A stretch of DNA of 61,085 nucleotides, from positions 1-61,085 of the forward strand of contig CAZDME010000001.1 in NCBI GenBank assembly GCA_964506785.1, written 5' to 3'. Position numbers and translations under genes: made by a program. Below, piece by piece: positions 1,977 through 61,085 of the stretch; the stretch's first letter is position 1, and each line of letters starts with the position of its first letter. The stretch comes from an uncultured bacterium (lineage in GTDB: Bacteria; CAZDME01; JAYEMH01). The notes beneath the pieces were generated by a model. It did no database searches. It was not told the DNA's origin and was given only the letters and a program-made list of their open reading frames with translations.

Positions 1977-1980
1977 GTCT

Positions 1981-2053
1981 GGCTCATAGCTGTTAGCTCT
2001 TGGTCGATAGTCAAAAAAACTCCATTCCTTTAACCATGAGCCATGAGCCAAAC
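1981..2053. repeat. family-A heptamer element (GCTCATA units, then reverse units)
   Basis: ggctcata gctgtta gctcttg gtcgata, then a spacer, then aaccatg agccatg agccaaa. Shares the 17-mer AACCATGAGCCATGAGC with 30838-30854. Confidence 0.8.
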
Positions 2054-2063
2054 AGGAAAGCCC

Positions 2064-2092
2064 TTGACAACCACCTCTAATTAACTTATAAT
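2064..2092 (+). promoter_or_regulatory. consensus sigma70-type promoter for rpmH operon
   Basis: TTGACA (2064-2069), 17-nt spacer, TATAAT (2087-2092). Confidence 0.8.
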
Positions 2093-2138
2093 CTCATAAT
2101 CTGATAATCCGAATAACCCAGTAACGGGAGAAAGCGCT

Positions 2139-2808: not shown

Positions 2809-2883
2809 GTAGCCGATAGCTCATCGGTCATGGCTCATAGCTAAAATTGGCTATTGGCTCGTAGCTTATGGTTGATAGCTAAT
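2809..2883. repeat. family-A heptamer array
   Basis: gtagccgata gctcatc ggtcatg gctcata gctaaaa ttggcta ttggctc gtagctt atggttg atagcta. Confidence 0.8.
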
Positions 2884-3124: not shown

Positions 3125-3215
3125 GTAGATGATGGCTTCCATTAGCTGTTGGCTCAGAGTTCATCGCTCATGGCTAAAAGAAAACACCTTTTTTGCCATT
3201 AGCTAAGAGCCAGAA
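3125..3215. repeat. family-A heptamer array abutting parS
   Basis: gtagatg atggctt ccattag ctgttgg ctcagag ttcatcg ctcatgg ctaaaag, then gccatta gctaaga gccagaa immediately before parS. Confidence 0.75.
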
Positions 3216-3231
3216 TGTTTCACGTGAAACA
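3216..3231. promoter_or_regulatory. parS site (perfect)
   Basis: TGTTTCACGTGAAACA. Confidence 0.85.
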
Positions 3232-4994: not shown

Positions 4995-5057
4995 GACTCG
5001 TTGATTGTGGCTGATGGCTCATAGCTGATTGCTTCCGCCAAAAGAGCTATGAGCCAA
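4995..5057. repeat. family-A heptamer array abutting parS
   Basis: gactcgt tgattgt ggctgat ggctcat agctgat tgcttcc gccaaaa gagctat gagccaa. Confidence 0.75.
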
Positions 5058-5059
5058 AT

Positions 5060-5075
5060 TGTTTCACGTGAAACA
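5060..5075. promoter_or_regulatory. parS site (perfect)
   Basis: TGTTTCACGTGAAACA. Confidence 0.85.
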
Positions 5076-6487: not shown

Positions 6488-6490
6488 GCA

Positions 6491-6660
6491 AATTTAGACA
6501 TTTTTGAACAAGTCTGGACAATTTTGGATGCCTGAAATTGAGAAATATTTCTTGGAAGAAAGGTTTTTTCGACCCGAAGAAACTCGGGCGAGAGCAACGC
6601 TTAAAACGACAAAAATGGACATATTTTGGCATTTTTGTACATATTTGGACAATTACTGGC
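6491..6660 (+). repeat. 10-nt-phased TGGACA-like repeats (family D, two clusters)
   Basis: tttagacatt tttgaacaag tctggacaat tttggatgcc (6491-6530). aaatggacat attttggcat ttttgtacat atttggacaa ttactggcat (about 6613-6662). Confidence 0.7.
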
Positions 6661-6707
6661 ATGGTTTCCTGAGAATCTTTCTGTTCTTTGCATTTGCTGA
6701 AGTTGCC

Positions 6708-6757
6708 TGTGGATAACCTGGAGACATCTGTGGATAACTTAATACATTTGTGGACTG
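6708..6757 (-). promoter_or_regulatory. DnaA-box trio
   Basis: TGTGGATAA at 6708-6716 and 6729-6737 (both 9/9 as the reverse complement of TTATCCACA). TGTGGACTG at 6749-6757 (7/9). Box starts are spaced 21 and 20 nt apart. Confidence 0.75.
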
Positions 6758-6780
6758 GGGTAGGCAAGTCTCAACTTTTC

Positions 6781-6830
6781 TGGACAAATTTGGACACTTC
6801 TGGACAAATTTGGACACTTTTGAAGACATA
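6781..6830 (+). repeat. tandem 2 x 20-bp (4 x 10-bp) TGGACA repeat
   Basis: tggacaaatt tggacacttc tggacaaatt tggacacttt, followed by a degenerate fifth unit tgaagacata. Lies immediately upstream of parA. Confidence 0.85.
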
Positions 6831-6847
6831 AAAGGGAGTTTTTTGTT

Positions 6848-7612: not shown

Positions 7613-7665
7613 AAATTTACAGTATACAGATAACAATTAATGATTTAAGTTAACAGTTTACAGTT
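7603..7665 (+). repeat. family-C heptamer array (ACAG-type)
   Basis: atacaga taaaaat ttacagt atacaga taacaat taatgat ttaagtt aacagtt tacagtt. It starts inside the last codons of parA and contains the parA stop codon. Confidence 0.75.
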
Positions 7666-7684: not shown

Positions 7685-7792
7685 AAATAACGAGCGAACG
7701 ATATAACGGGAAACACGATAACGAGATAACGGACAACGGAATAACGTGATAACGAGCGATGAGATAACGTGATAACGGGGGACGTGATAACG
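7685..7792 (+). repeat. family-B array (nGATAACG units, 7-8-nt period), largest copy
   Basis: At least 13 consecutive units ending in ACG: gaaataacg agcgaacg atataacg ggaaacacg ataacg agataacg gacaacg gaataacg tgataacg ... tgataacg ggggacg tgataacg. Confidence 0.9.
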
Positions 7793-15875: not shown

Positions 15876-15927
15876 GCCAAAAATAAATAAGGTGACAGGT
15901 AATAATAGGTGATAGTTGGTAGCGTCT

Positions 15928-15948
15928 CCTAGAGCCTATAACCTAAAT
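15928..15948 (+). repeat. family-H heptamers (CCTAnnn x3)
   Basis: cctagag cctataa cctaaat. The 11-mer CCTATAACCTA recurs at 35261-35271. Confidence 0.55.
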
Positions 15949-15965
15949 TACGAAAGGAGGGATAA

Positions 15966-16502: not shown

Positions 16503-16543
16503 CGTTATTCATCTATCGTTATCTCGTGTATCTGTTCTTACGG
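16503..16543 (-). repeat. family-B array, reverse units (CGTTATC)
   Basis: cgttattcatctat cgttatct cgtgtatctgttcttacgg. Confidence 0.7.
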
Positions 16544-19450: not shown

Positions 19451-19492
19451 AAAACAGTTTACAGTTAACAGTGGACAGTGAACAGTCGGCAG
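19451..19492 (+). repeat. family-C heptamer array (six units ending in CAG)
   Basis: aaaacag tttacag ttaacag tggacag tgaacag tcggcag. Confidence 0.9.
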
Positions 19493-20502: not shown

Positions 20503-20546
20503 AGAATTTATTTCTAACGGGGGGGTTCTCTAACGGGGTAAAAACT

Positions 20547-30788: not shown

Positions 30789-30865
30789 CTGATTGCTCAT
30801 AGCTCTTAGTGGATAACTAACTAATCTTTTTTCGTCTAACCATGAGCCATGAGCAAAGAGCAAAC
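30789..30865. repeat. family-A heptamer element, homologous to 1981-2053
   Basis: ctgattgctcatagctcttagtgg, then a spacer, then taaccatgagccatgagcaaagagcaaac. Confidence 0.8.
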
Positions 30866-30885
30866 AGCCAGGGGGAGTTAGGAGA

Positions 30886-30920
30886 CAAACTGTAAACTGT
30901 CCACTGTACACTGTTAACTG
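30886..30920 (-). repeat. family-C heptamer array, inverted orientation (units ending in CTG)
   Basis: caaactg taaactg tccactg tacactg ttaactg. This is the reverse complement of the CAG-type units at 19451-19492. Confidence 0.88.
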
Positions 30921-30932
30921 GAAACTTAACCC

Positions 30933-31457
30933 ATGTCCATCAAATACAGCCTAAGGCTTCTTAATATTATTACCGCGGTGGTTCTTTTAATTTTCTCTTC
31001 CTTTATGATTATTAAACTGAACAAAGCTGCCAATACCATAGAAACATTGGTTTTCCTAAAGGATGATTTAAGCAAGGAGGAGATTGAAGGGTTAAAAATG
31101 CGCCTCAAGGCCTTTAAAGGGATAAAAACAATAAAATTTTCTCATCCCGATGAAACTCTCAAAATGTGGACAAAAACCATAGAGAGAAAAAAACTTTTAG
31201 AAATTATTGATACAAACCCATTTCCGCCTCTTTTCCGAATCCAACTAAAAAAAGGAAAAAGCCTGAGAAGCCTTTACCGGATGAGGACCACCCTCGAACA
31301 AATTTCCGGGATCAAGAAAGTTGAGTATGGCGGAAGGCGGACGGAAGAGGTAATCAAGCGGACCCAGAGATATCTTTTTGCCTTTATTGTTGCCTTTTTT
31401 GCCGCTTTAATAAATATTTTAGACCATGTTTTTATCACCTATTATACGCGGAAGTAG
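30933..31457 (+). CDS. FtsX-like protein reduced to TM1-extracellular domain-TM2
   Basis: 174 aa. TM helix, an FtsX-ECD-like region (VFLKDDLSKEEIEGLKMRL...NPFPP...GIKKVEY), a second TM helix, then a stop. TM3 and TM4 are absent. Confidence 0.55.
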   Translation: MSIKYSLRLLNIITAVVLLIFSSFMIIKLNKAANTIETLVFLKDDLSKEEIEGLKMRLKAFKGIKTIKFSHPDETLKMWTKTIERKKLLEIIDTNPFPPLFRIQLKKGKSLRSLYRMRTTLEQISGIKKVEYGGRRTEEVIKRTQRYLFAFIVAFFAALINILDHVFITYYTRK

Positions 31458-32661: not shown

Positions 32662-32665
32662 ATAC

Positions 32666-32708
32666 CGTTATCCCGTTGTTCGTTATTTCGTCAACGAGAT
32701 AACGGGAT
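32666..32708. repeat. family-B inverted arrays
   Basis: cgttatc ccgttgtt cgttattt cgtc, then aacg agataacg ggata. Confidence 0.8.
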
Positions 32709-35225: not shown

Positions 35226-35281
35226 AGCTGATAACTAGCGGGTAAGAGCTGCTAAAAAGACCTATAACCTATGGCCTATTG
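35226..35281 (+). repeat. family-A/H heptamers upstream of tsaD
   Basis: gctgata actagcg ggtaaga gctgcta aaaagac, then cctataa cctatgg cctattg. Confidence 0.6.
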
Positions 35282-37048: not shown

Positions 37049-37107
37049 TGCCGGTGAATAGTGCATGGTGAAAACGAGATAACGAAATAACGAGGAACGA
37101 GATAATG
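37049..37107 (+). repeat. family-E (GTGAATn) units followed by a family-B array
   Basis: tgccggtgaatagtgcatggtg, then gaaaacg agataacg aaataacg aggaacg agataatg. Confidence 0.85.
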
Positions 37108-38883: not shown

Positions 38884-40500
38884 ATGAAGCCAATATCGGA
38901 GATTGCCAAAAACTGGGGAGTAAAGGAAGAAGAGCTTAAATGCTTCGGCCCTTATATGGCCAAGGTTTCCCTGAATCTTTTGAAGCGTTTAAAGAATAGC
39001 CCTGAGGGAAATTTAATTATTATCTCGGCGATGACTCCAACCAATCAGGGAGAAGGGAAAACTACCACTACTATTGGTTTGGCCCAGGCCTTGAATCGGT
39101 TAGGCAAAAAAGCTATTCCAACCCTGCGAGAGCCGTCACTCGGCCCTTTTATGGGCCTAAAAGGAGGGGCAACCGGCGGCGGCGCCGCTGAGGTGCTGCC
39201 TAAGGATGAGATAAATCTGCATTTTACCGGAGATATTCACGCCGTCGGGGCCGCCCACAATTTGTTGGCTGCCCTGGTTGATAATTCAATTTATCGGGGA
39301 AACAATTTAAAATTAAACCCGGAGCGCCTTTTTTGGCCCCGGGTGATTGATACCAGTGACCGGGGTCTCCGAGAAATTTTATTAAGTTCAAGCGGCAAAA
39401 TCGCCCAGAATCCTTATAAAACCTCTTTTGAAATCACCGCCGCTTCCGAAATTATGGCGGTTTTATGTTTATCTGAAAATTTCTCCGAATTAAAAAGAAA
39501 AATAGGAGAGATTATCGTTGGACTGGATTTTTCTGAAAAGCCCGTCAGGGTAAAAGACCTGGGGGCAGAAGGAGCGCTATCCCTTCTTTTAAAAGATGCC
39601 CTGATGCCTAATTTGGTTCAGACCAGTGAGTTTGGTCCGGCCTTTATCCACGGCGGCCCATTTGCTAATATTGCCCATGGCTGTAACAGTATCCTGGCGA
39701 TAAAGATGGCTTTGAAATTAGCCGATTTTGTCGTTACCGAGACTGGGTTTGCCGTCGATTTGGGTGCGGAAAAGTTTATCCATCTGGTTTCATCCCCCTT
39801 TAATCTTTCTCCCCGGGCTTTAGTCATTGTCGCCAGTCTCCGCGCCTTGAAAATGCATGGCGGAGAAAAGGCTGGTTTTAAATTAGGGTTGGACAATTTA
39901 TCCAAGCAGATAGAAAATGGAGAAAAACTGGGGTTTCGGGTGGTTGTTGCCCTAAACAGGTTTAAAGAGGATTTGCCTCAAGAAATCAAATATGTAGAAG
40001 ATTTTTTTGCTAAGAAGCAAATCTCTTTAGCTGTTTCTGAGGTCTGGCAAAAAGGAGGAAGAGGCGGCGAGGATTTGGCAAAAAAGATTTTAGAGGTAGT
40101 TAACCGCTCTGGGGGAAATAAAACCTTCAAGGGTTTATATACCCATAACAATTCTTTTAAAGAAAAGGTAGAGGCGATTGCTGTTGAAATTTACGGGGCA
40201 AGTGGGGTAGGTTATTCTGAGGAGGCAGAAAAAGATATCGCTTTTCTTAAGAAAAATAAATTGGACCAGATGCCGGTTTGTCTGGCCAAGACACACAAGT
40301 CGCTTTCTGATAATCCTAATCTTTTAGGCAGGCCCAAGGGTTTTAAAATTAAAGTTGAAAAAATTAAGCCGGCTGCCGGAGCGGGTTTTTTAGTTGTATA
40401 TTGCGGTAAAATTCTTACTTTGCCGGGGCTCCCCCTTTATCCCCGGGCGATGCGAATGGATTTGGGGGATGATGGAGAAATCAAAGAGAAAAATGGTTGA
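38884..40500 (+). CDS. fhs: formate--tetrahydrofolate ligase
   Basis: ORF 38869-40500 trimmed to ATG 38884. P-loop PTNQGEGKTTTTIGL. Confidence 0.95.
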   Translation: MKPISEIAKNWGVKEEELKCFGPYMAKVSLNLLKRLKNSPEGNLIIISAMTPTNQGEGKTTTTIGLAQALNRLGKKAIPTLREPSLGPFMGLKGGATGGGAAEVLPKDEINLHFTGDIHAVGAAHNLLAALVDNSIYRGNNLKLNPERLFWPRVIDTSDRGLREILLSSSGKIAQNPYKTSFEITAASEIMAVLCLSENFSELKRKIGEIIVGLDFSEKPVRVKDLGAEGALSLLLKDALMPNLVQTSEFGPAFIHGGPFANIAHGCNSILAIKMALKLADFVVTETGFAVDLGAEKFIHLVSSPFNLSPRALVIVASLRALKMHGGEKAGFKLGLDNLSKQIENGEKLGFRVVVALNRFKEDLPQEIKYVEDFFAKKQISLAVSEVWQKGGRGGEDLAKKILEVVNRSGGNKTFKGLYTHNNSFKEKVEAIAVEIYGASGVGYSEEAEKDIAFLKKNKLDQMPVCLAKTHKSLSDNPNLLGRPKGFKIKVEKIKPAAGAGFLVVYCGKILTLPGLPLYPRAMRMDLGDDGEIKEKNG

Positions 40501-42190
40501 AAACCCGAAAATTCTAGTGAAAATAGCAGAAAAAATTGGTTTCCTCAGTAAAAAGAAATTAAATGAAGCCATGGAGGAACAGAAGCGTACAGGGGAAAGA
40601 CTCCCGGCTGTTTTAGTTAGGCTCGGATATCTGGCTAAGGAAGAATTAGGCATTGCCCTGGCCAATCAATTCAATATGGAAACGGTCAAATTATCTGAAA
40701 AAGAGATTTCCATCGAGCTTTTAAAAAGTTTTGACGCCGAATTAGTTAAAAGACACCGCTTTATTCCTTTAGAGAAAGAAAAAGGTAAATTAATTGTCGC
40801 CATTGATAATCCTTTAAATCTTTTTGCCTTTTCTTATTTAGAAAACCAGCTTAAGTGTAAAATGAATGCTTTTTTAATTACCCCCAAGGAGCTTGATCAG
40901 GCCCTGGAGAAATTTTTTGGTTTCGAAGAACCCCGGATTACTTCTCTTTATAAAAAATTACGAGACGAGGATTTACATATTGAAGGGTTTGGCGATGAAT
41001 TAGAAGAGACGCCGGCTGATGACGCCCCGATTATTAAATTGGTTCATGTATTAATCCTGGAGGGTTTTCGCAGCCGGGCCAGCGATATTCATCTTGAGCC
41101 TTTGGAGAACCGGTTTCGCATTCGCTACCGCATTGACGGAGTACTTCACGATGCGCCCGGACCACCCAAAAGATTGGAAGCGGCCATTATCTCCCGGGTA
41201 AAAATTATGGCCAGGATGGATATTGCCGAGAAACGCCTGCCACAGGACGGCCGCATTAAGATTAAGCTTGCCGGAAAAGACCTGGATTTAAGGGTTTCGA
41301 CCCTGCCCGGGCTTTATGGAGAAAGTGTCGTTTTGCGAATTTTAGACCGAAGCAGTTTATTAAAAGATATGGCTGATTTGGGATTCAGTCTGCGTGACCA
41401 GAAAGAATTCGAGAAATTATTAGGTATTACTAACGGAATAATTCTGGTGACTGGGCCGACGGGCAGCGGCAAAACCACGACACTTTACTCAGCGTTAAGC
41501 CGTTTGAACCAGGCTGACCGTAAAATTGTTACCGTCGAAGATCCGATAGAATACCAAATTTCCGGTATCAACCAGGTAGAGGTAAAGCCCTATATCGGCC
41601 TGACCTTTGCCCAGAGCCTGCGTTCAATTTTAAGGCAGGCGCCGGATATCCTGATGATTGGTGAAATTCGGGATTTGGAAACAGCCGAAATTGCTATTCG
41701 CTCCGCCCTCACCGGACATTTGGTCCTCAGCACCTTGCATACCAATGATGCCTGCAGTGCCGTCACCCGGTTGATTGATATGGGAGTAAAGCCCTTTTTA
41801 GTTGCTTCTTCTTTGCGGGCGGTTTTATCGCAGCGATTAGTCAGGAAAATTTGTTCTTACTGCAAAGAAGCCTATCAACCCAGTTTGAATGAGTTAACTG
41901 AAGTTGGCTTGAAAGAAGGCGATATTCCTGAGGTGACTTTTTATCGCGGTAAGGGATGTCCAAAATGCAATCAAACCGGTTTCCGGGAGAGAATTGCTAT
42001 TTTTGAACTGTTGCTTATGAGCGAACAGTTAAGAAAGATAATTTATGGCAAGCCTTCGAGCACCCAGATAAAAGACATTGCCCAGAAAGAAGGAATGTTT
42101 ACCCTGCGGGAGGACGGCTGGGCAAAGGTTTTTGCCGGGATAACTACTTTAACTGAAGTTTCCCGGGTAACCATAGGCGATGATGATTAA
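40469..42190 (+). CDS. GspE/PilB-family secretion ATPase (paralog 1)
   Basis: MshEN/T2SSE_N-like N-domain, Walker A GPTGSGKTTT, tetracysteine CSYC...CPKC. Start chosen at ATG 40469; 40472 or 40493 are also possible. Confidence 0.88.
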   Translation: MMEKSKRKMVENPKILVKIAEKIGFLSKKKLNEAMEEQKRTGERLPAVLVRLGYLAKEELGIALANQFNMETVKLSEKEISIELLKSFDAELVKRHRFIPLEKEKGKLIVAIDNPLNLFAFSYLENQLKCKMNAFLITPKELDQALEKFFGFEEPRITSLYKKLRDEDLHIEGFGDELEETPADDAPIIKLVHVLILEGFRSRASDIHLEPLENRFRIRYRIDGVLHDAPGPPKRLEAAIISRVKIMARMDIAEKRLPQDGRIKIKLAGKDLDLRVSTLPGLYGESVVLRILDRSSLLKDMADLGFSLRDQKEFEKLLGITNGIILVTGPTGSGKTTTLYSALSRLNQADRKIVTVEDPIEYQISGINQVEVKPYIGLTFAQSLRSILRQAPDILMIGEIRDLETAEIAIRSALTGHLVLSTLHTNDACSAVTRLIDMGVKPFLVASSLRAVLSQRLVRKICSYCKEAYQPSLNELTEVGLKEGDIPEVTFYRGKGCPKCNQTGFRERIAIFELLLMSEQLRKIIYGKPSSTQIKDIAQKEGMFTLREDGWAKVFAGITTLTEVSRVTIGDDD

Positions 42191-42200
42191 AATAGAGCTT

Positions 42201-42267
42201 GGATTCGTGAATGGTAAATCGTGAATAGTGCAAACGAGATAACGTGATAACGGGAAACGGGATAACG
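42201..42267 (+). repeat. family-E heptamers followed by a family-B array
   Basis: ggattcgtga atggtaaatc gtgaatagtg, then caaacg agataacg tgataacg ggaaacg ggataacg. It ends 4 nt before ATG 42272. Confidence 0.88.
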
Positions 42268-42271
42268 AAAA

Positions 42272-44041
42272 ATGGTGGATAGAAAAACGGGAAGAAAACA
42301 CCTGAGGCATTATAAAAGCTTGGGAGAGCTGCTGGTAGAGATGCAGATTGTCAATGAAAAGCAGCTGGAAGAGTTGATGCTTGAGCAGAGAAGAACCGGA
42401 GAATTGCTCGGGCGGATTGTCGTCCGCCAGGGATTAGCCAGCGAAAAGGAAATTATGGATGCTTTGGCGGCGCAAACCGATATGCCGGTGGTAACTTTAA
42501 GCCGTTTGAAAATTAACCCAAAGATTATTAATAAAATCTCTCCCAGTTTAGCCAGGATTTATAAAGTTGTGCCCATTAGAGAGGAAGGCAAAGTTTTGCT
42601 TGTTGCTCTTTCTGACCCTTTTAATACCCAGGTTCTTGATGATTTGCGTTTTATTCTGAATAGTGAAGTGAGGGGAGCTATCGCCAGTGATAAAGATATT
42701 GACCAGGCCTTGCAGAAATATTACGGAAAGGAAACAGAAAGCCTGGAGGTATTGCTGCAAAAAATGGAGTCTACTCCCTTGATGCAAAAGGAATTAGAAA
42801 AGGTGAGTGAACCCGATATTGCCAGTCTTCAGGAATTAGCCCGGGAAGCCCCAATTGTTAAACTGGTAAATCTGGTTTTGATTCAAGCGGTTAAGGACCG
42901 GGCCAGTGATATCCACTTTGAACCCTATGAAGACATCTTTAGAATCCGCTATCGTTTGGACGGTCTTCTTTATGAAATGACTCCTCCGCCGGCTCGCCTC
43001 GGTTTAGGTATTATCTCCCGTCTTAAAGTAATGGCTGATTTGGATATTGCCGAGCGAAGACTTCCTCAAGACGGCCGCATGGAGATAAATGTTGAAGGCA
43101 AGCGCATTGATATCCGAGTATCAACCCTGCCTACCGCTTTTGGTGAAAGTGTGGTTTTGCGGATTCTCGACCGCAGTCTGGTGATGCTTTCTTTAAACGA
43201 AATTGGGCTTTTACCTGATAGCTTAGCGGTTATAGAGGGGCAGATTAAACGTCCCCAGGGAATGGTTTTAGTGACCGGGCCGACTGGCTGCGGAAAAACC
43301 ACTACCCTGTATTCAATTTTAAAAAGAGTAAATGAGCCGGGTTATAAAATTATTACTACTGAGGATCCAGTTGAATATACTATTACCGGTGTCATTCAGG
43401 TTCCGATTAAACCGCAGATTAAACTGAATTTTTCCACTTGCCTAAGGCATATTTTACGCCAGGATCCCGATATCATCATGGTTGGTGAAATTCGTGACCA
43501 GGCCACAGCAGAGATTGCCATTCATGCCGCTCTTACCGGACATTTGGTTCTCAGTACCCTGCATACCAACGATGCTCCAGAAACGATTACCCGTCTTATC
43601 GATATGGGAGTGGAACCTTTTTTAGTTACCTCGACCCTGCAGATAATTATTGCCCAGCGCCTGGTAAGAATTTTATGCCCTGAGTGTAAGGAAAGTTATC
43701 AAGCCAGCCCGAAAGATTTAGTTGCTCTGGATATTAACCTGGATGAGGTCACTTCTAAAAACTTTGAACTGGATGAAGAGGGGAAATTAATTTTATATCG
43801 TCCCAAAGGCTGTCCTTTATGCCGCCAGATTGGATATCGCGGACGAACGGGGATATTTGAAATATTGACCCTTAATGATGAAATCCGGGAGTTGATTGTT
43901 AACCGGGCTTCAGCCGAGGAAATTCGAAAAATTGCCAGTCAGGCCGGGATGAGGAATTTAAAACTTGATGGTTTGCAAAAAGCATTGCAGGGAATAACCA
44001 GTTTAGAAGAGGTCCTCAGGGAAACGCAAACCTTTATATAG
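42272..44041 (+). CDS. GspE/PilB-family secretion ATPase (paralog 2)
   Basis: 589 aa. T2SSE_N domain, Walker A GPTGCGKTTT, tetracysteine CPEC...CPLC. Confidence 0.9.
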   Translation: MVDRKTGRKHLRHYKSLGELLVEMQIVNEKQLEELMLEQRRTGELLGRIVVRQGLASEKEIMDALAAQTDMPVVTLSRLKINPKIINKISPSLARIYKVVPIREEGKVLLVALSDPFNTQVLDDLRFILNSEVRGAIASDKDIDQALQKYYGKETESLEVLLQKMESTPLMQKELEKVSEPDIASLQELAREAPIVKLVNLVLIQAVKDRASDIHFEPYEDIFRIRYRLDGLLYEMTPPPARLGLGIISRLKVMADLDIAERRLPQDGRMEINVEGKRIDIRVSTLPTAFGESVVLRILDRSLVMLSLNEIGLLPDSLAVIEGQIKRPQGMVLVTGPTGCGKTTTLYSILKRVNEPGYKIITTEDPVEYTITGVIQVPIKPQIKLNFSTCLRHILRQDPDIIMVGEIRDQATAEIAIHAALTGHLVLSTLHTNDAPETITRLIDMGVEPFLVTSTLQIIIAQRLVRILCPECKESYQASPKDLVALDINLDEVTSKNFELDEEGKLILYRPKGCPLCRQIGYRGRTGIFEILTLNDEIRELIVNRASAEEIRKIASQAGMRNLKLDGLQKALQGITSLEEVLRETQTFI

Positions 44042-44131
44042 CTCATAGCTGATAGCTCATCGTTCATAGAAAACCCATGAGCTAAGAGCCAGGGGCTATA
44101 AACTAGAAGAGCAAGTCAGGAGAGAGAAGCC
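44041..44131 (+). repeat. family-A heptamer tiling of the whole intergenic gap
   Basis: gctcata gctgata gctcatc gttcata gaaaacc catgagc taagagc caggggc tataaac tagaaga gcaagtc aggagag agaagcc, then ggg and ATG 44135. Confidence 0.85.
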
Positions 44132-44134
44132 GGG

Positions 44135-45367: not shown

Positions 45368-45371
45368 AAAC

Positions 45372-45409
45372 CGTTATTTCGTTATCTCGTTGCTCGTTAT
45401 ATCGTTGCC
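45372..45409 (-). repeat. family-B array, reverse units
   Basis: cgttattt cgttatct cgttgct cgttatat cgttgcc. Confidence 0.88.
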
Positions 45410-45441
45410 CGCTCTCTCGCTGAAAGCAGAAAACCTCATAC

Positions 45442-49079: not shown

Positions 49080-49205
49080 CCCCGTAGAGAAGATAAACAA
49101 GGAAGCGAATTCTATCAGATATTTTCGGCTTTTTAAGGGAGGGGATGCCTTTTTCTAACGGGAAGAATATGTGGAGTGACGTTTTCTTATAAATAAGCTA
49201 ACAGC

Positions 49206-49239
49206 GAGGGTGTTCCTAAAATGGAGCACCCTCTTTTTT
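49206..49239 (+). terminator. Rho-independent terminator
   Basis: gagggtgttcc-taaaat-ggagcaccctc followed by TTTTTT. Confidence 0.75.
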
Positions 49240-50652: not shown

Positions 50653-50681
50653 TTGACTTTCCGCTTTCTATATGCTATATT
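50653..50681 (+). promoter_or_regulatory. sigma70-type promoter with extended -10 (orphan)
   Basis: TTGACT, 17-nt spacer (ending TGc), TATATT. The 21-nt block 50670-50690 is 19/21 identical to 57218-57238. Confidence 0.6.
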
Positions 50682-50687
50682 TTCTAT

Positions 50688-50809
50688 GGTATTTATATAC
50701 GGCTGGATAAAGGCAAATCCGCCGCAAGGCGGAGACGCAAAGCTACAGATTCTTGCTAAAGGCAAGGAAGTCTGAGTTACCTAGGATATAGGCGATTCAG
50801 CTTTTTTTT
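50688..50809 (+). ncRNA. candidate ~120-nt small RNA (unknown family)
   Basis: Lies between the promoter at 50653-50681 and the stem 50772-50800 plus T8 (50802-50809). Contains a GNRA-capped hairpin ccgcc-gcaa-ggcgg (50719-50732). No convincing ORF. Confidence 0.3.
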
Positions 50810-52397: not shown

Positions 52398-54932
52398 ATG
52401 CATAGAAAAATATTGATGATACTTTTAATTTTCATCCTGTCCAATTTTGTCCCTTGCGGAAGTTCCTTCTCGGAGGAAATTAGCCGCCATCAGGCAAAAC
52501 AAATAGAAAGATATTACCGGAAGGGGCAGTCTTTTTACCAGAGAGGTGAATACAAAAGAGCCGAGGGGTTTTTCCGAAAAATTTTGAAGCTCTATCCGGA
52601 AGATCAAGTTGCCAGGGAGTATCTTAAGGAAATAAATACAACTATCAAGCAGAGAAAAAAGGCCAAGGAGGAAAAAAAGGCTGAGTTGTTACGAAGAAGA
52701 AGGCAGGGAAAAGAAGAGAAAAAAGAGAATAAGGATTTAAAGCATTATCGAAAAAGGCAAAAGAAAAAAGAGGGTGAAACAAAAACTGAACTGCAGAAAA
52801 GGGAATGGAAAGAAGAGAGGGAAAGGAAAAAGGAAGAAGCCCGGAGAAGAAATCAGGAGGAGAGGATTGCCCGGAAGATAAAGCAGGAGATAAAAAAGCT
52901 GGAGAAGGAAAAAAGGGCGAGAATAAAGGAGATAGAAAAGGAGAGGGCGAAGAAAGAAAGAGAAATGATCCGCCAGGAGAAGAAACTCCTTCGGGAAAAG
53001 AAACGTTTTGAAAAGAGAGAGGTATCTTTTAAGCAGAAGGAAAGAGAAGAGATTAATCTGGCTCAGATAAAGGGGAAAAAGGAGCGGGAAGAGAAAAAAG
53101 CGGAAAAAAACCGCAAAATAGAGGCTAAAAAGGCGGAGAAAAAGAGAAAAATTGAAGAAAAAAGGCTATCCAGGGAACAGAAGATAGAGGCAAGAAGAAA
53201 GGCTAAAGCAGAAAAAAAGGCTCAGGCTAAGGTTGAGGCTGAGGAGAAAAGAAAGGTTCGGCTGGAAGCTAAAGCAAAGAGAAAGGCAGAAATAGAGGCA
53301 AGAAGAAAGGCTAAGGCTAAGGCAAAGAGGAAAAGAGCTGAAGAGAAGAAAGCGGCTAAGTTGGCCAGGGAACAAGAGCTAGAGGCGAAGAAACAGGCCA
53401 AGATTGAAGCAAGAAGAAAGGTTCAGGCCGAGGTTGAGGCTGAGAGGCAGGCCGAGCTAGAGGCAAAGGAAAAAAGAAAAACAGAAAGAGAAGCAGAAAG
53501 AAAGGCCAAGACTGAGGCTAAGGCTGAAGCAAAGAGGAAAAGGCGTGAAGAAAAAGAAACTGCCAGATTATCCAGAGAAAAAGAAAGGAAAGAAAAGAAA
53601 GAAGCTGAACGTTTGGCCTCTGAGGAAGCCTTAGCGGCTAAGAAACTGGCGCGGGAAGAAGCCAGACAAAAAAGGCTTGAGCGTATCCAGCGGCGTAAAG
53701 AAGAAAGAGAAGCTCAGATAAAAAAGGAAAAAGAGGAAAAAGAAAAAGCCCGGGAAGCCAAAAAAGCGGAAAAAAAGGGGGAAATAGAAGCCAAAAAGGC
53801 TGAAAAAAAGAGAAAAATTGAAGAAAAAAGGTTAGCCAGAGAGAAAAGAAAGGCTGAAAGGGAAGCAGAAAGAAAGGCCAAGACTGAGGCTAAGGCTGAG
53901 GCAAAGAGGAAAAGAGCTGAAGAGAAGAAAGCGGTTAAGTTGACCAGAGAAAGGGAGATAGAGGCGAAGAAAAAGGCTGATGCAGACAAAAAAGCTCAGG
54001 CTAAGGCTGAGGCTGAGGAAAAAAGAAAGACTCGGCTAAAAGCTAGGGCAAAAAGAAAAGCCGAAAGAGCAATAAAGAAAAAGGTTATTGCGACTAAGGC
54101 GGAGGAGGAAAGACAAGAGCTTGAAGAAAAAGAGACCGTAAGACAGGCAGAAATAAAGGAACAAGCTGAAACTTTAACGGTTGAAACTTTAGCGGAAGAG
54201 AAGGACTTACAAAAAGAACAAGTAATCCGGGAGGAAGCCAGGCAGAGAAGGATTGAGGGTATAATTAGCCAGGTAAAAGAACAAAAAGAAAAAGAGATAA
54301 AAAAGCAGTCTCAAGAAGCCAAGAGAGCGGAAAAAGAGAGAAAAAAAGAGGCCAAAAGGCTGGCTAAAGAGAAAAGGGAAACAGAAAGAAAGGCTAAGGC
54401 TGAGGCAAAGAAAAAGAAGCTTGAAGAAAAAGAAGCAGCCAAGATAGCCAGAAAACAGGAAATAGAGGCAAGAAGAAAGGCTAAACTTGAGGCCAGGGCA
54501 GAAAAAAAAGCTCAGGCTAAGGTTGAGGCTGAGGAGAAGAAAAAGCCTGAGGCTAAAGTTGAGGAAGCATCTGATAAAAAGGTCATAGATCCCGGCAGAA
54601 AAAGCCGGGAAGAAATCTGGGAAGATATTTATCGCCAGGCCAGGAAAAAGGAACTCTTGGAGATGAAAAAAAGAGAAACATTTATCAAGCGCCTGGAGGG
54701 GAAAAAGGAGGCCCAGAGAGAAAAGCGGGCTTTAAATAAGAAGAAAGCCGCCAGCTATTTTCAGAAAGGTTTAGAATACTACCAGGCCGGAAAAACTTTA
54801 CAGGCGGTTGAACTCTGGGAGAAGGCTTTAAAGTTGGATTCTGAGGATAAAAAGATAAAAAGAAGACTAAAGAAAGCCAGGCGGGAACTTAAAAAGAGGT
54901 CCCTCCAAAAAGAAGAGACCTCAGATGAATAA
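52398..54932 (+). CDS. secreted TPR protein with a ~650-aa K/E/A/R-rich helical spacer
   Basis: 844 aa. Signal peptide, a TPR-like unit at each end, and a highly charged central region with long internal repeats. Confidence 0.8.
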   Translation: MHRKILMILLIFILSNFVPCGSSFSEEISRHQAKQIERYYRKGQSFYQRGEYKRAEGFFRKILKLYPEDQVAREYLKEINTTIKQRKKAKEEKKAELLRRRRQGKEEKKENKDLKHYRKRQKKKEGETKTELQKREWKEERERKKEEARRRNQEERIARKIKQEIKKLEKEKRARIKEIEKERAKKEREMIRQEKKLLREKKRFEKREVSFKQKEREEINLAQIKGKKEREEKKAEKNRKIEAKKAEKKRKIEEKRLSREQKIEARRKAKAEKKAQAKVEAEEKRKVRLEAKAKRKAEIEARRKAKAKAKRKRAEEKKAAKLAREQELEAKKQAKIEARRKVQAEVEAERQAELEAKEKRKTEREAERKAKTEAKAEAKRKRREEKETARLSREKERKEKKEAERLASEEALAAKKLAREEARQKRLERIQRRKEEREAQIKKEKEEKEKAREAKKAEKKGEIEAKKAEKKRKIEEKRLAREKRKAEREAERKAKTEAKAEAKRKRAEEKKAVKLTREREIEAKKKADADKKAQAKAEAEEKRKTRLKARAKRKAERAIKKKVIATKAEEERQELEEKETVRQAEIKEQAETLTVETLAEEKDLQKEQVIREEARQRRIEGIISQVKEQKEKEIKKQSQEAKRAEKERKKEAKRLAKEKRETERKAKAEAKKKKLEEKEAAKIARKQEIEARRKAKLEARAEKKAQAKVEAEEKKKPEAKVEEASDKKVIDPGRKSREEIWEDIYRQARKKELLEMKKRETFIKRLEGKKEAQREKRALNKKKAASYFQKGLEYYQAGKTLQAVELWEKALKLDSEDKKIKRRLKKARRELKKRSLQKEETSDE
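53095..53945 (+). repeat. long internal DNA duplications in the K/E/A-rich gene
   Basis: About 53095-53180 resembles about 53760-53845 (KKAEK..IEAKKAEKKRKIEEKRL). About 53490-53555 resembles about 53862-53945 (EAERKAKTEAKAEAKRKR.EEK). A third partial copy lies at about 53320-53372. Confidence 0.8.
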
Positions 54933-57199: not shown

Positions 57200-57229
57200 T
57201 TGCTTTTTTAAGTCTCCATATGCTATACT
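57200..57229 (+). promoter_or_regulatory. sigma70-type promoter with extended -10 upstream of the RHS gene
   Basis: TTGCTT, 18-nt spacer (ending TGc), TATACT. Shares a conserved block with 50670-50690. Confidence 0.55.
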
Positions 57230-57262
57230 TTCCATGGTTTTTTTCAAAAAAGGAAAGGTTTT

Positions 57263-60200
57263 ATGGGGAAACTTTCCAGAATTTTTAAGGTTTTTATTGG
57301 TTGTTTAATTCTTTTTGTTAGTTTGCTTGTCATTATTGTTTCTCCCTCCGCCACGGCCAATGATTATGCCGATAAATATCCTGCCAATTTCCGTCTTTCC
57401 GAAGATATCTCCCGTCTTTCTAATTGGATAAAGCCTCGCTATTATTACCAAATGAGCCTGCGTTGGAGCGGTATCCCGGGGGCCACAGGTTATGAAATAG
57501 AGATGTATAGTAGCCATTGGCTTTCCAGAGATGCCTATGGCAACTATTCTGGATTAGGCCCTGGTTTTCGGACGACTAGAAAGACAGGAACTGCTGTATC
57601 TTTTGAGACCTTTTTAACCGGGGAAAAAGATAGAGAATATGATATCGAAGAACTGCGCCAGGAAGCGTGGTGGCGGAAAATTGTCCGGGCGACGACCTCT
57701 CAGAGAATCAGTGTCCGCGGCCGAACCCTCTTTGGCTGGAATCCTTATTCCGGAGGTCCGGGGAAACCCTTTAGCAATTGGTCTTCCTACGGTTATACTG
57801 AGTATGAAGAAGAAGAGGAAAAAGGAAATCACGGCCAGCCCAAAGATGAAAAAGCCAGTGCCGGAGGCGACCCTATCAACCTGACCAACGGCAATCTTTT
57901 CTCTACCACCCCGGAGTTTTCGATTTCTACCCGGGGCTTGCCTTTGGAGGTTTCCCGGACTTATAACAGCCGTTCTACTTATAACGGGCCGCTGGGTTAT
58001 GGCTGGACCCACAGCTTTAATTTAACTTTAGAAGAAGACCCATATAACCCAGAGAACGGAGCCTGGTATTATCTTTTCTTGCGACGGGGAGACGGACGCG
58101 CTCTTTATTTTCAGCGTTTAATGGACGGCAGTTTTATCGGACCGCGTGGTGATTTTTCTACCTTAGTCGAAGAAACTGATGGAAGCTACCTTCTTCAGGA
58201 AAAACATGGCGTTCTTTCTCAGTTTAATGCCGAAGGAAAGATTGTTTCCATGTCCGACCGCCAGGGTAATGAAACAACCTTTACCTATGATGTTGAGGGA
58301 AGGCTTATTGAAGTTATCGGCCCGGCCGGAAGGGTAATTTCCCTTAGCTATAATGTAAACAGCAAAATCAGTCAAATTATTGACCCCGCCGGGCGCACCT
58401 ATAGCTATGCCTATGATGGCGAAGATAATTTAGTCCAGGCAACCGATCCCCTGGGTCAGATTACCACCTATAATTATGATGAAAATCATAACCTTACCTT
58501 TATTACCTATCCGGACGGCACCCATACCTATTTTTCTTATGACGATAACGACCGGGCTACGGCCACCTGGAATGACGGCGATAACCAGAAAGTCAACCTG
58601 GTTTATGATACGGAAAATAGAGCCACCCAGATAACCGACGCTCTAGGCAGAACCACCACCTATATCTATAATTACGACCATCAGATTACGGCAATTATTG
58701 ACCCTGAGGGAAGCGAAACTAAATATGTTTATGACGGAGCTAATCTCACCTGTACTTCTATAACCAATGCCTTGGGAAGAATTTTACAGTTCAGCTATGA
58801 TGAAAAAGGCAATCTCCTTAGTTCGGTGGATGCCTTAGGCAATACCACCACCTATACTTACGAACCGAATTATAATTTCTGTACCGGTATTATTGACCCT
58901 CTGGGCCAGACGACAAATTTTATTTATGAGGCCGCCGGAAATCTTATTGAAACAGTCGATGCCTTAGGTAATAGCTCACATTTTTCTTATGATACCTATG
59001 GAGAGCTTATCTCTTTTACTAATCCTAAAGGGTCAAGTACCCAGTACGGCTATGATACCTATGGAAATTTGCTTCAGGTTACTGATGCTTTAGGTAATAT
59101 TCAGGAGATGAGTTATGATATCCTGGGCAATTGTCTTTCCATAAAAGACCGCCGGGCAAATATTACCCAATATAATTATGATTTGCTCAATCGTCTCACT
59201 CAGCACATCTTACCCGATGGTAATACCATAAATTACACCTATGACCCGGTAGGAAATTGCACCTCGGTTACTAATCAGTTGGGCGAGACCTATACTTATC
59301 AGTATGATGCCGTTGACCGTTTGACTGGCCTTACCGATTCTTTAGGAAATATAACTGTCTTTGGCTACGATTTGGTTGGGAACCGCACGGTGATTACCGA
59401 TGCTCAAGGAAAGATAACTAACTTTAGCTATGATAGTCTCAACCGTTTGATTAAAGAGACTTCTCCTTTGGGAAACGAAACCAGCTACCTTTATGATGTT
59501 TTAGGGAATGTAATTTTACTCACTCAGGCTGGCGGCCAAGAAATAAATTATCAATATGATGAAAATAATCGTCTCATTCAAATTACCTACCCTGACGGGG
59601 AAACCATTTATTATCTTTATAATGCTACTGGGCAGTGCATAGAGATTACCTCTAGTGGCGGCGAGATAGATACCTTTTCCTATGATGCCCTGGGGAGATT
59701 GCTTCAGCTTGACCGGGGTAATGGCGGTGATTCAATTAGTTATGCCTATGATAGCTTAGGTAGTCGCCTGGCGATGATTGACCAGAATAACGGACAGACA
59801 CTTTATCAGTATGATGTCCTCGGCCGTTTGGTTGAGCTTTCTAACCCAGAGGGTGAGATAACTCAATATATTTATGATGCCGAAGGAAATGTAATTGAGT
59901 TATCCCGGGCGAATGGCAGCCGGACGATTTACACCTATGATAATTTAAATCAATTAGTTAAATTAGAAAATCTATCTTCAAGCGACCAGCTTCTTTCAAG
60001 CTTCCAATATGAATATGATGCCGCCGGCAGAAAAATAAAAGAGATTGATTCAGACGGCGCTACCATTGCCTATACCTATGATTCCTCCGGAAGGTTGATT
60101 GAAGAGAGAAAATACGAAATTGTTGATGAGGAAGAAAGAGAAATTTATGCCCGCATTTATACCCTGGATGCTTTAGGAAATGTGCTTGAGGAAACTTCTC

Positions 60201-61085
60201 ATCAAGGTGAGCTAAAGGAAGAAGAGGGCGGATGGACTTGGTTAAAAGGAAATAATAGCGCCTTTACTTTTGCCTCCCTTGTTTTTAAGAAAAATTATCT
60301 ACTTCTTGCTTCTAACAGTTTAAATTTTAGCTGGCGAAATAAAAAAAGGCCTCTACTTAGAATTATTGAAAATTATAGAGAGAAAGTAAGAAGGCTTTGT
60401 AGAAAAATAAAGGAAATTTCTAAAAGGCCCAACCAGAGGCATTGTAAGATAAAAAAAGCCAGAAGAGCCTGGAAGAAATATCGCCATTATTGTTGGGAAA
60501 AACGTTGGTGGCGTCGGTTTTGGAAAGGTAAGAAAAAAGATATCTGGGAAATTACTAAGACCAAAACAAGCTATATTTACGACGCCGAAAATCGTCTTCT
60601 TTCATACGAGGAGATAAGCTTGGATACTGATGAACTTCTTTCTACCGGGCAATATAATTATGATGCCAATGGCAACCGATTTGAGAAAATAAAAGAAATT
60701 TACGGTCAGGGAGATTCGGGAAGCGAAAAAGCCATTGAGACTTGGGTCTATCAGTATGATTATGAAAATAGGCTAAAAAACGTTCTGAAAAATGGAGAGG
60801 CAGTGGCTAACTATTTTTATGATGCTTTGGGCAAACGGATTCAAGCAGAAGAAGGGGGAGAAATAAACAAATTTTATTATGACGGACTATTAGCCATTTT
60901 AGAGCGAGACAGCGACGGGGAGGTAGTATCTTTCTACACCCGCGGCCTGGATTTAGGCGGCGGAATCGGCGGCATAATCAGCACCAAAAATTTGCACCTC
61001 GTAGGTGCAAGTTTTTTTCATTATGATGGACGGGGAAATGTGATAGAATTAAGCGATGAAGCCGGTGTCTCCCAGGCAAGCTATA
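57263..61085 (+). CDS. RHS/YD-repeat protein, 3'-truncated by the window edge
   Basis: Open frame from ATG 57263 to the window end with no stop by hand translation (not in the track because it never terminates). Signal peptide, DPINLTNGNLF...GLPLEVSRTYNS plug motif, dozens of YD repeats, and the start of the RHS core (GGGIGGII...FFHYDGRGNV). Confidence 0.9.
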   Translation, partial: MGKLSRIFKVFIGCLILFVSLLVIIVSPSATANDYADKYPANFRLSEDISRLSNWIKPRYYYQMSLRWSGIPGATGYEIEMYSSHWLSRDAYGNYSGLGPGFRTTRKTGTAVSFETFLTGEKDREYDIEELRQEAWWRKIVRATTSQRISVRGRTLFGWNPYSGGPGKPFSNWSSYGYTEYEEEEEKGNHGQPKDEKASAGGDPINLTNGNLFSTTPEFSISTRGLPLEVSRTYNSRSTYNGPLGYGWTHSFNLTLEEDPYNPENGAWYYLFLRRGDGRALYFQRLMDGSFIGPRGDFSTLVEETDGSYLLQEKHGVLSQFNAEGKIVSMSDRQGNETTFTYDVEGRLIEVIGPAGRVISLSYNVNSKISQIIDPAGRTYSYAYDGEDNLVQATDPLGQITTYNYDENHNLTFITYPDGTHTYFSYDDNDRATATWNDGDNQKVNLVYDTENRATQITDALGRTTTYIYNYDHQITAIIDPEGSETKYVYDGANLTCTSITNALGRILQFSYDEKGNLLSSVDALGNTTTYTYEPNYNFCTGIIDPLGQTTNFIYEAAGNLIETVDALGNSSHFSYDTYGELISFTNPKGSSTQYGYDTYGNLLQVTDALGNIQEMSYDILGNCLSIKDRRANITQYNYDLLNRLTQHILPDGNTINYTYDPVGNCTSVTNQLGETYTYQYDAVDRLTGLTDSLGNITVFGYDLVGNRTVITDAQGKITNFSYDSLNRLIKETSPLGNETSYLYDVLGNVILLTQAGGQEINYQYDENNRLIQITYPDGETIYYLYNATGQCIEITSSGGEIDTFSYDALGRLLQLDRGNGGDSISYAYDSLGSRLAMIDQNNGQTLYQYDVLGRLVELSNPEGEITQYIYDAEGNVIELSRANGSRTIYTYDNLNQLVKLENLSSSDQLLSSFQYEYDAAGRKIKEIDSDGATIAYTYDSSGRLIEERKYEIVDEEEREIYARIYTLDALGNVLEETSHQGELKEEEGGWTWLKGNNSAFTFASLVFKKNYLLLASNSLNFSWRNKKRPLLRIIENYREKVRRLCRKIKEISKRPNQRHCKIKKARRAWKKYRHYCWEKRWWRRFWKGKKKDIWEITKTKTSYIYDAENRLLSYEEISLDTDELLSTGQYNYDANGNRFEKIKEIYGQGDSGSEKAIETWVYQYDYENRLKNVLKNGEAVANYFYDALGKRIQAEEGGEINKFYYDGLLAILERDSDGEVVSFYTRGLDLGGGIGGIISTKNLHLVGASFFHYDGRGNVIELSDEAGVSQASY
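60992..61018 (+). other. terminator-like hairpin inside the RHS ORF
   Basis: ttgcacct-cgt-aggtgcaa (8-bp perfect stem) followed by gTTTTTTT and preceded by AAAAAt. Confidence 0.4.

Follow-up and report, generated by a model that had tools for sequence, protein, structure and literature searches.

What is the short tandem repeat in the gap between gspE2 and gspF of an uncultured bacterium, how did it arise, and is it read? The repeat and the rest of the gap lie at 44038-44134 in a 61 kb stretch of DNA (61,085 nt; the window, below) beside the replication origin, on which all our counts for this genome rest. The window has a G+C content of 43.8% and nearly all of its genes on the + strand: dnaA, rpmH, yidC, mnmE, parA and parB, then FTHFS, two MshEN-type gspE, gspF and clpB. 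The closest named relative of its GspF, at 77% identity, is that of "Candidatus Ratteibacteria bacterium", and the host lineage is a Ratteibacteria-like candidate phylum. A preliminary description had seen the intergenic DNA of the window as tiled by degenerate heptamers of at least seven families, whose letters we retain (A to F, and H). The element at 44038-44100 belongs to a set of about 30 short arrays. We consider it probable that these are simple-sequence arrays generated by slippage in place, of the same kind as the short tandemly repeated repetitive (STRR) sequences of cyanobacteria and the heptanucleotide long simple-sequence repeats of other bacteria, and that they are dispensable and at most modulatory.

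The gap has four parts.

44038..44069, + strand: forward arm, ATAGCTC ATAGCTG ATAGCTC ATCGTTC ATAG; period 7, 4.6 copies and 80% matches in Tandem Repeats Finder (TRF)
44070..44075, + strand: A-rich spacer AAAACC, 6 nt, the hairpin loop
44076..44100, + strand: reverse-complement arm, CATGAGC TAAGAGC CAGGGGC TATA, pairing with the forward arm
44101..44134, + strand: ordinary gspF leader without repeat structure; AGGAG Shine-Dalgarno at 44118-44122

The TAG stop codon of gspE2 (44039-44041) falls inside the first ATAGCTN unit. The 4.6 forward units and the complementary ones (about 3) are in phase with each other and make a total of about 8-9 for the gap. It had been read as 13 in-phase heptamers running up to the start codon, which is too many; the last 34 nt before the ATG are repeat-free. 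As RNA, the 63 nt of 44038-44100 fold with a minimum free energy of -23.6 kcal/mol (z -3.76; 1 of 400 shuffles as stable), and as DNA with z -3.12 (1 of 200 shuffles as stable), while the z for the entire gap is only -1.6.

Period, extent and structure of the arrays

The period is not limited to this gap. Across 36 intergenic stretches (6375 nt), autocorrelation compared with dinucleotide shuffles peaked at lag 7 (z 5.9) and lag 8 (z 5.6), with further peaks at lag 14 (z 3.6) and lag 15 (z 3.2). Coding DNA of the window exhibited no lag-7 or lag-8 autocorrelation in the same test. With family B and an origin-type cluster masked (both described below; 4858 nt left), lag 7 stood at z 6.2, lag 14 at z 4.7 and lag 21 at z 2.3, and lag 8 at only z 0.06, leaving a pure period of 7. 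The period-7 excess over shuffles on which the heptamer claim had been staked is significant in the full and in the masked set. Periods 5, 6, 11 and 12 were at background level in the gaps of the window.

Clustering de novo by 4-mer and lag returned CAGT, GAGC, ACAG, ACTG, CCTA, TCAT and TAGC at lag 7, and AACG, TAAC, ATAA and GATA at lag 8. The lag-7 set regains the cores of three of the families first picked out by eye: A (GAGC, TCAT, TAGC), C (CAGT, ACAG, ACTG) and H (CCTA). TRF placed period-7 arrays at 2816, 7644, 19453, 23703, 30887 and 44038, with match rates among units of 60-85%, and reported arrays at most of the positions where families A, C, D and F had been noticed. Each set of positions given for a family does contain the motif ascribed to it.

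We scored arrays strictly (at least 15 of 21 matches at lag 7 or 8) or loosely (13 of 21). Strict arrays cover 10.4% of intergenic bases, as against 0.2% in shuffles and 0.25% of coding DNA, which places them in non-coding DNA; loose arrays cover 23% of intergenic bases and 2% of shuffles. Arrays are present in 17 of the 38 gaps of at least 40 nt. The periodicity is real, but "tiled" overstates its coverage. There are about 30 arrays in the window, with 7-nt units (A, C, E, F, H) or 8-nt units (B). All of the motifs behind the "at least seven families" are present as well, but they are a mixture of one octamer family, one origin-type cluster of 10-mers and variants of one drifting heptamer superfamily. 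The heptamer families are not discrete, a WYAG core being common to A, E and H, and the three-unit examples of E and H are individually weak. Other heptamer arrays are the following.

1980..2053, + strand: family A inverted pair (GCTCATA... / ...CCATGAGCC); fold z -1.7; 3 nt from a parS-like site at 1961-1976
2810..2883, + strand: family A array pair; fold z -2.6; 3 nt from parS at 2791-2806
3125..3215, + strand: family A inverted pair; fold z -2.9; its end adjoins parS at 3216-3231
5005..5057, + strand: family A hairpin (GGCTCATAGCT ... AGCTATGAGCC); fold z -3.7; its end adjoins parS at 5060-5075
7613..7665, + strand: family C units (TTTACAG, TATACAG ... TTAACAG, TTTACAG) in the gap between parA and parB
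15890..15950, + strand: family H with a degenerate partner arm (ATAGGTG ATAGTTG ... CCTAGAG CCTATAA CCTAAAT); fold z -1.1
19451..19492, + strand: family C direct array (AACAGTN, 4.9 copies), beginning 2 nt after a stop codon
23698..23830, + strand: family F, about 19 purine-rich direct GGGARAN units in the 5' leader of a lipoprotein gene
30789..30872, + strand: family A inverted pair directly 3' of a stop codon; fold z -1.9
30884..30929, + strand: family C inverted (AAACTGT, 5.7 copies); 3 nt separate it from the ATG at 30933
35261..35281, + strand: family H (CCTATAA CCTATGG CCTATTG); fold z +0.9
37053..37072, + strand: family E, three units (GTGAATA GTGCATG GTGAAAA)
42202..42232, + strand: family E (CGTGAAT GGTAAAT CGTGAAT AGTGCAA)

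Two architectures recur: inverted pairs with an A/T-rich spacer, and direct, purine-rich, unstructured runs (B and F). All six family A elements fold better than their shuffles (z -1.7 to -3.8), and nine inverted pairs combined give a Stouffer z of -7.1. For the direct B and F runs the fold z of the whole gap is near 0. Elements that combine E and B, those of B alone and those of H fold no better than shuffles, and not every array is a hairpin.

Start codons near arrays were assigned by eye with the help of signal peptides and Joint Genome Institute (JGI) gene calls. Mechanical calls of open reading frames (ORFs) start within arrays because these often lack stop codons in one frame, and spurious calls begin at 7769, 16594, 23688, 27282 and 38869. 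In the case of family F, the true start of the lipoprotein gene is the ATG at 23844 and the TTG-initiated ORF from 23688 is spurious.

A stretch of 3.2 kb contains four parS sites (TGTTTCACGTGAAACA), and a distance of 1-6 nt separates every one of them from an end of a family A array; a fifth, weak site is at 3518-3533. The association with palindromes noted in the preliminary description therefore stands for the window, where four parS sites are beside A arrays and a second palindrome is joined to B arrays (below), but the parS link is absent in the related contig L091, whose one observed parS has no array beside it.

Family D, counted earlier among the repeat families, does contain a 10-mer array, but it is a different thing. 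In the gap between mnmE and parA (6488-6847), a 10-bp-phased TTTGGACA array is found together with three TGTGGATAA DnaA boxes, and TTTGGACA-like 10-bp-phased units stand at both edges of the gap. This layout is kept in two relatives (L091 3408-4024; L093 2522-2895), in contrast to the heptamer arrays. The gap is likely to be oriC or a cluster of DnaA boxes. Among other known repeat types considered, iterons are applicable to family D only; CRISPR was rejected on spacing, which is far too short, and skewed octamers of the KOPS (FtsK-orienting polar sequence) or Chi kind were rejected given that family B is tandem and intergenic.

The arrays are not terminators or promoters. Their hairpins have no T-run and are absent from the list returned by a terminator scan, which does include two copies of the second palindrome (16572, 19644) and a hairpin at 49206; as intrinsic terminators they were rejected since no U-tract follows the stem. 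Rho utilisation sites were also considered and found no support. Promoters of the sigma-70 consensus (48112) and terminators of the classic form, a hairpin followed by U residues (49206), are in use in this lineage, and the gaps with this promoter, this terminator or a cyclic di-GMP (c-di-GMP) riboswitch (50702) contain no arrays. Totals from the promoter and terminator scans are not clearly above shuffles (42 versus 30.8, 30 versus 27.7, 30 versus 24.4, and 29 versus 22.1), and the scans are relied on for individual consensus sites only.

The riboswitch, of class c-di-GMP-I, occupies 50702-50784 (59.8 bits, E 3e-9) downstream of a promoter-like site at 50653. It is the sole match at gathering score in an Rfam scan of the window, and the arrays match no Rfam family. 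Both gspE paralogs (40493-44041) carry MshEN domains, which bind c-di-GMP. Further along, an 844-residue ORF at 52398-54932 has no Pfam match and contains A/G-rich tandem repeats with periods of 6, 9, 12, 33 and 36; its product is a lysine-/glutamate-rich low-complexity protein, and it is syntenic in the related contig L085. At 57212-61085, an ORF that encodes a signal peptide and spans at least 1291 codons is cut off by the end of the window.

The same gaps in related genomes

We compared the window with six syntenic contigs from related species (L085, L086, L087, L088, L091 and L093), whose GspF or MnmE is 64-78% identical to that of the window. Arrays are also found in the contigs of these six relatives; L089, with 51% GspF identity, has none. 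A GspE search of a genome collection contributed no relatives, none of the matches listed being closer than 56% identity.

In the gap between gspE2 and gspF, the units are ATAGCTC/ATGAGCT in the window, ATAGTGA with ACTAAAT/ACTAACG in L086, and TCCATAG/CTATGGA in L088. The orthologous gap folds with z -5.4 in L086 and z -6.1 in L088, and in all three genomes the second arm roughly complements the first arm of its own genome. For L086 and L088, pairing an arm with its native partner gives a more stable hairpin than pairing it with an arm from another genome; the window arm pairs equally well with the L088 arm, with no advantage to the native pair. A WYAG core every 7 nt is common to the window, L086, L087 and L088. 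Correspondence extends to other gaps: the family E gap at 42202 is orthologous to gaps with ATAGTGA arrays in L086 and L088, and the family H units at 35261 correspond to CTATGGA, the reverse-arm type that L088 has in this gap.

Between L086 and L088 (GspF 90% identical), the orthologous arrays downstream of gspF differ by gaps of 7, 7 and 6+1 nt. Between L087 and L088 (95% identical), an orthologous gap measures 22 nt without an array in the former and 161 nt with an array in the latter; L085 has 32 nt and no array there. Elsewhere in L085 (3720-3822), about nine near-perfect TTCGTGR units are followed by a complementary arm, an arrangement that points to a recent expansion. The preliminary description had asked whether the arrays are syntenic or variable in unit number, and both are the case: the same gaps often carry arrays, and units and unit number vary, so that hairpin potential occurs together with variability between relatives at the same position. 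We conclude that the arrays are heritable, change by whole units and are dispensable, the last because they undergo whole-unit indels and can be lost entirely in relatives.

A shorter time scale is provided by four other public assemblies (L081-L084) in which the window strain recurs at 99.99% identity. These represent one strain and serve solely as a test of stability, being uninformative on divergence. Over 34135-55367 (21 kb), these four independent assemblies from different samples contained 0 indels and at most 3 mismatches. If the arrays were phase-variable contingency loci, changes in unit number would act as a switch on the gene that follows. As such loci would have it, neither 7 nor 8 is divisible by 3, arrays adjoin start codons and unit number differs between species. 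However, the stability across the four assemblies argues against switching, degenerate units (60-85% matches) suppress slippage, and the flanked genes are housekeeping genes (tsaD, FTHFS, parB, clpB). Phase variation is very improbable.

These observations are consistent with the following course. A unit of 7-8 nt would be multiplied in place via slipped-strand mispairing, the units would afterwards diverge at a few positions, and blocks of two or three units would be re-amplified to give higher-order periods of 14, 15 and 23 nt. Complementarity of the arms may be kept through intra-strand, hairpin-templated copying, possibly also through selection. Inverted pairs would form an imperfect hairpin between two co-directional genes, and direct B and F runs lie behind the stop-proximal part of a gap and ahead of the Shine-Dalgarno that serves the next gene. 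Inheritance would be vertical, with whole-unit indels and, at times, complete loss. As intercistronic stem-loops or spacers, arrays could influence how mRNA is processed, how stable it is or how translation is coupled; whatever function they might have would be secondary and modulatory. We infer slippage with template switching as the generating process. Slippage and intra-strand copying are favored by the 7-nt indels, by the near-perfect L085 array, by hairpins that single out neither strand (below) and by loop inversions in the second palindrome, loop inversions being a known product of hairpin-templated strand switching.

Octamer arrays, a REP-like palindrome and evidence for constraint

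Family B had been described as a heptamer, GATAACG, but it is mainly an octamer. AACG recurs 26 times at lag 8 and 5 times at lag 7, and the units comprise 38 octamers and 9 heptamers, with the consensus ATAACG-N-G. Three of the octamer arrays are given here.

2076..2125, + strand: octamer array TATAATCT CATAATCT GATAATCC GAATAACC CAGTAACG, upstream of rpmH
42233..42267, + strand: family B octamer array (AACGNGAT), sense; ends 4 nt before the gspE2 ATG
45371..45419, - strand: family B antisense (CGTTATCT), directly after the gspF stop codon

On the sense strand, ten B arrays stop 0-25 nt short of a start codon: the one before gspE2 and others starting at 7687, 9663, 16618, 19703, 27271, 32771, 36307, 37073 and 38818. 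Antisense B arrays (CGTTATC) occur only just after stop codons, behind gspF and at 16503-16530 and 32664-32690. B arrays alone are unstructured (fold z about 0), and an inverted pair of antisense and sense B at 32662 folds with z -4.6. At rpmH, which has a consensus promoter (TTGACA-17-TATAAT; region 2066-2125), the array begins in the -10 box and grades into B-like units.

The second palindrome resembles a repetitive extragenic palindrome (REP). It is perfect, TTATCACACTT-NNN-AAGTGTGATAA, and present in seven copies (10984, 11732, 16579, 19650, 27227, 38775 and 45447), with 0 expected by chance. Five of the seven have a GC clamp (CCGCC/GGTGG) and a T-rich tail (TTTTCTGCTTT) followed by a B array, one of the five being reversed, and look like a terminator-plus-leader cassette. 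In the seven hairpins the 3-nt loop is ACG or CGT irrespective of the orientation of the flanks. A diverged copy is found in L085 at 2015-2084.

Several results weigh against an account by slippage and neutral decay alone. GATAACG lies on the sense strand in 31 of 38 copies, mostly just before start codons, and this bias of strand and position therefore needs selection or a strand-specific mutational bias. Differences among family B units fall nearly all at 2 of the 8 positions, and the WYAG core is retained across genomes with 75% GspF identity, with the variation at 3 of 7 positions. Such uneven variation within the unit is not predicted by pure slippage and neutral decay and hints at sequence-specific constraint. 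The composite of REP and B, recurring five times with a conserved non-repeat linker and once reversed, looks like dispersal, not birth in place. Selection on the sense RNA, for its part, finds no support in comparisons of G.U pairing and stability. Counted over 37 hairpins (window, relatives and other lineages), such pairs number 112 in sense and 116 in antisense, with no sense excess, and the sense strand is the more stable in 16 of the 37.

The resemblance to dispersal raises the alternative that the array hairpins are non-autonomous elements of the REPIN (hairpin-forming REP doublet) or MITE (miniature inverted-repeat transposable element) type, arm, spacer and arm being inserted whole, possibly by a Y1 (IS200/RAYT-type; REP-associated tyrosine transposase) enzyme acting on single-stranded hairpins. 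REPINs are defined as hairpin-forming inverted REP doublets, and inverted doublets with a spacer and extragenic hairpins are likewise features of REPIN/REP sequences (bacterial interspersed mosaic elements; PMC3116915). The window genome also has a true REP-like palindrome in seven copies, and the five alignable copies of the REP-plus-B composite, one reversed, would fit insertion. So would the presence or absence of a whole element at 95% GspF identity (22 versus 161 nt), the repetition of the family A unit at six places, two copies of which share TAACCATGAGCCATGAGC, and the Y1_Tnp proteins encoded in L088 and L093. However, the family A copies have no common spacer, length or boundaries; they share a 7-nt unit only, in place of the two inverted seed copies of about 16 nt or more of a REPIN. 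Instead of a conserved REP of 16-25 nt, each arm is a tandem run of 7-nt units, with no conserved long seed and, in the window, no linked RAYT. Orthologous arrays are related by descent in 7-nt steps, for which evolution in place is a better fit than repeated insertion. The window has no Y1 transposase and no transposase of any kind, and the Y1_Tnp gene of L088 is accompanied by another palindrome. We consider such mobility unlikely.

The Y1 genes of the relatives lie at 14064-14726 in L088 and at 7069-7776 in L093. That of L088 is flanked by GGGAGTTGACCCC palindromes and not by heptamer arrays; that of L093 is preceded by GTGTGCA GTGTGCA and followed by GTGTGAT, flanks that resemble the REP stem of the window rather than the arrays. 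A second lineage-wide repeat, built on CCCCGTTAGAGAA / TTCTCTAACGGGG, forms long composite hairpins in relatives (L085 1104-1345; L091 3408-3520 and 4940-5060; L088 15230-15300). In the window, only short fragments of it occur (20511-20538 and 49152-49163), in numbers not above chance.

Constraint within the unit also keeps alive a different alternative, because variation is concentrated at few positions and family B is biased to the sense strand before starts: the arrays could be periodic binding platforms for a protein covering 7-8 nt of single-stranded RNA or DNA, with cold-shock-domain, S1 or KH proteins as candidates, and so mark a post-transcriptional regulon. Conserved cores do stand at fixed spacing beside hypervariable positions (ATAACG+N+G, and WYAG+NNN in four genomes), and the ten unstructured sense B arrays end close to start codons (0-25 nt). 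Their architecture is like that of the TAACTGA repeats discussed below, for which S1, Csp and CsrA have been proposed as binders (PMC4679880). In addition, GATAACGN arrays precede start codons in unrelated contigs of 54-57% G+C, but these contigs came from an exact-pattern search of 241 million records and therefore show no recurrence beyond chance sampling of a common phenomenon. The same gaps are array-free in close relatives, the units vary among genomes and among the gaps of one genome, and no candidate binding protein was identified. We regard a protein platform as improbable.

The GATAACGN octamer arrays lie in unrelated metagenome contigs L096, L100 and L111, and also in L099, L106 and L161. 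The first three (54-57% G+C) have 4-7 units, just before an ATG in L100 and L111, and L096 has a complementary CCGTT-type arm. A metagenome pattern scan for GATAACGNGATAACG returned, among the matches listed, mostly single chance matches, with six loci having at least two; it therefore says nothing on genome-wide abundance in this organism.

Known repeats and occurrence beyond the lineage

In filamentous cyanobacteria, STRR have units of 7 bp and fold into hairpins in the spacers of co-transcribed genes, hupS-hupL among them; their function is unknown, with a role in transcript stability or translational coupling possible (PMC2670836). The preliminary description had aptly compared the window with them, but its view that diversity of families and inverted pairing set the window apart is unsupported, as STRR are hairpin-forming 7-bp repeats too (PMC2670836). 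The window arrays have 7-nt units (true of the masked set; family B, with period 8, departs from this), belong to several families per genome, lie in non-coding spacers between co-transcribed genes, are capable of forming hairpins, and are variable between close relatives yet "structured", as STRR are called in a title (PMC2670836; Jackman & Mulligan 1995). The differences are that the lineage is Ratteibacteria-like and not cyanobacterial, that the most abundant family in the window is an octamer, and that its units are more degenerate. The STRR consensus units are CCCCAGT, TTGGTCA and CAACAGT. The window lacks all three in this exact form; its family C (AACAGTN) comes near to CAACAGT. We conclude that the arrays share every tested defining feature of STRR but taxon, with an octamer family added. 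The repeat type is already known, and what is new is its occurrence in a little-studied candidate-phylum lineage.

Direct heptamer repeats of TAACTGA are described from marine Beggiatoaceae, cyanobacteria and Bacteroidetes (MacGregor 2015, PMC4679880). The position and orientation of these leader repeats are shared by the B, F and inverted C arrays, in that short direct sense arrays stand a few nt from start codons, before housekeeping genes and with stop triplets in all frames, and the relative L085 carries TAACTGA-like CAGTTAT and ACTGACA arrays. The window differs in its many unit types and many inverted pairs, and in that most array leaders keep an SD-like GGAG, whereas leader repeats of the TAACTGA type stand in place of the Shine-Dalgarno; the window leader at 42191-42271 has no such GGAG.

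According to a survey as cited in a later paper, heptanucleotide units outnumber all others among the long simple-sequence repeats of prokaryotes, with polymerase slippage as the proposed cause (Mrazek 2007, via PMC4679880). As far as that citation allows a comparison, period 7 is likewise preferred over other non-triplet periods in the window and in 11 of 80 unrelated loci, and is patchy among lineages; the survey scored long, near-perfect repeats, whereas the window arrays are short (3-9 units) and imperfect.

The unrelated loci are 80 GspE neighborhoods (1.25 Mb) from the genome collection, taken as a background set. They contain 77 period-7 arrays as against 5-12 each for periods 4, 5, 8, 10, 11 and 13. 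The period-7 arrays are concentrated in 11 of the 80 loci and absent from 59; many are inverted pairs whose unit differs gap by gap. The 11 loci are labeled Verrucomicrobiota, Methylomirabilota, Deltaproteobacteria, Phycisphaerae, Nitrospinota, Armatimonadota and Omnitrophota, although the labels of metagenome-assembled genomes (MAGs) in this set are unreliable. Confinement to this one window, which would have spoken against the earlier claim, is not what we found: the relatives and 11 of the 80 loci have the pattern as well, and it is not special to the phylum.

Two related, Verrucomicrobia-like loci in this material (L009 5660-10730 and L023 15150-18290) have inverted pairs of heptamer arrays inside pseudopilin genes. 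The pairs follow the ATG, which in many cases forms ATGA with the upstream stop, and precede the G|FTLIEL prepilin motif. The arrays are in frame and stop-free in 8 of 9 cases and give leaders of 40-50 residues, such as MKCPFTIYDLRFTICRKSAVSRAFHHPSSITKHKFRGAFTLLELLVV. Several are perfect 4.6-copy repeats, in which a slip by one unit would therefore shift the frame. ATTTACG as a unit conserved across phyla was rejected, as L009 and L023 are one lineage with about 80% DNA identity over gspE. L009 is labeled Candidatus Acidoferrum (Acidobacteriota) and L023 Verrucomicrobiae; beyond gspE their identity is 66-77%, and the bin label of L009 is probably wrong.

The most far-reaching proposal is that the conserved 4-6-nt cores at strict 7-8-nt spacing (WYAG+NNN in four genomes; ATAACG+NG) are neither debris of slippage nor mobile DNA but mark a widespread system, so far unrecognised, whose protein, of 7-nt footprint, would coat single-stranded RNA or DNA, open or close the array hairpins and thereby set expression within operons. 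We judge this quite unlikely, more so than a binding platform in this lineage. If true, it would also explain the cyanobacterial STRR, the TAACTGA repeats and the heptamer-encoded prepilin leaders of L009 and L023.

The reading that we prefer, arrays formed by slippage in place, would be mainly of descriptive value, in its evolution by 7-nt steps and its dispensability. In practice, the arrays yield false ORFs and wrong start codons in annotation and, to judge from the short contigs of the relatives, may break up assemblies from short reads in these lineages. Heptamer hairpins of the STRR kind are not peculiar to cyanobacteria, as they occur in a candidate phylum and in roughly 1/7 of the sampled unrelated loci. 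With several related MAGs, this lineage is a usable comparative system for asking why 7 nt is favored and whether the arrays are read.

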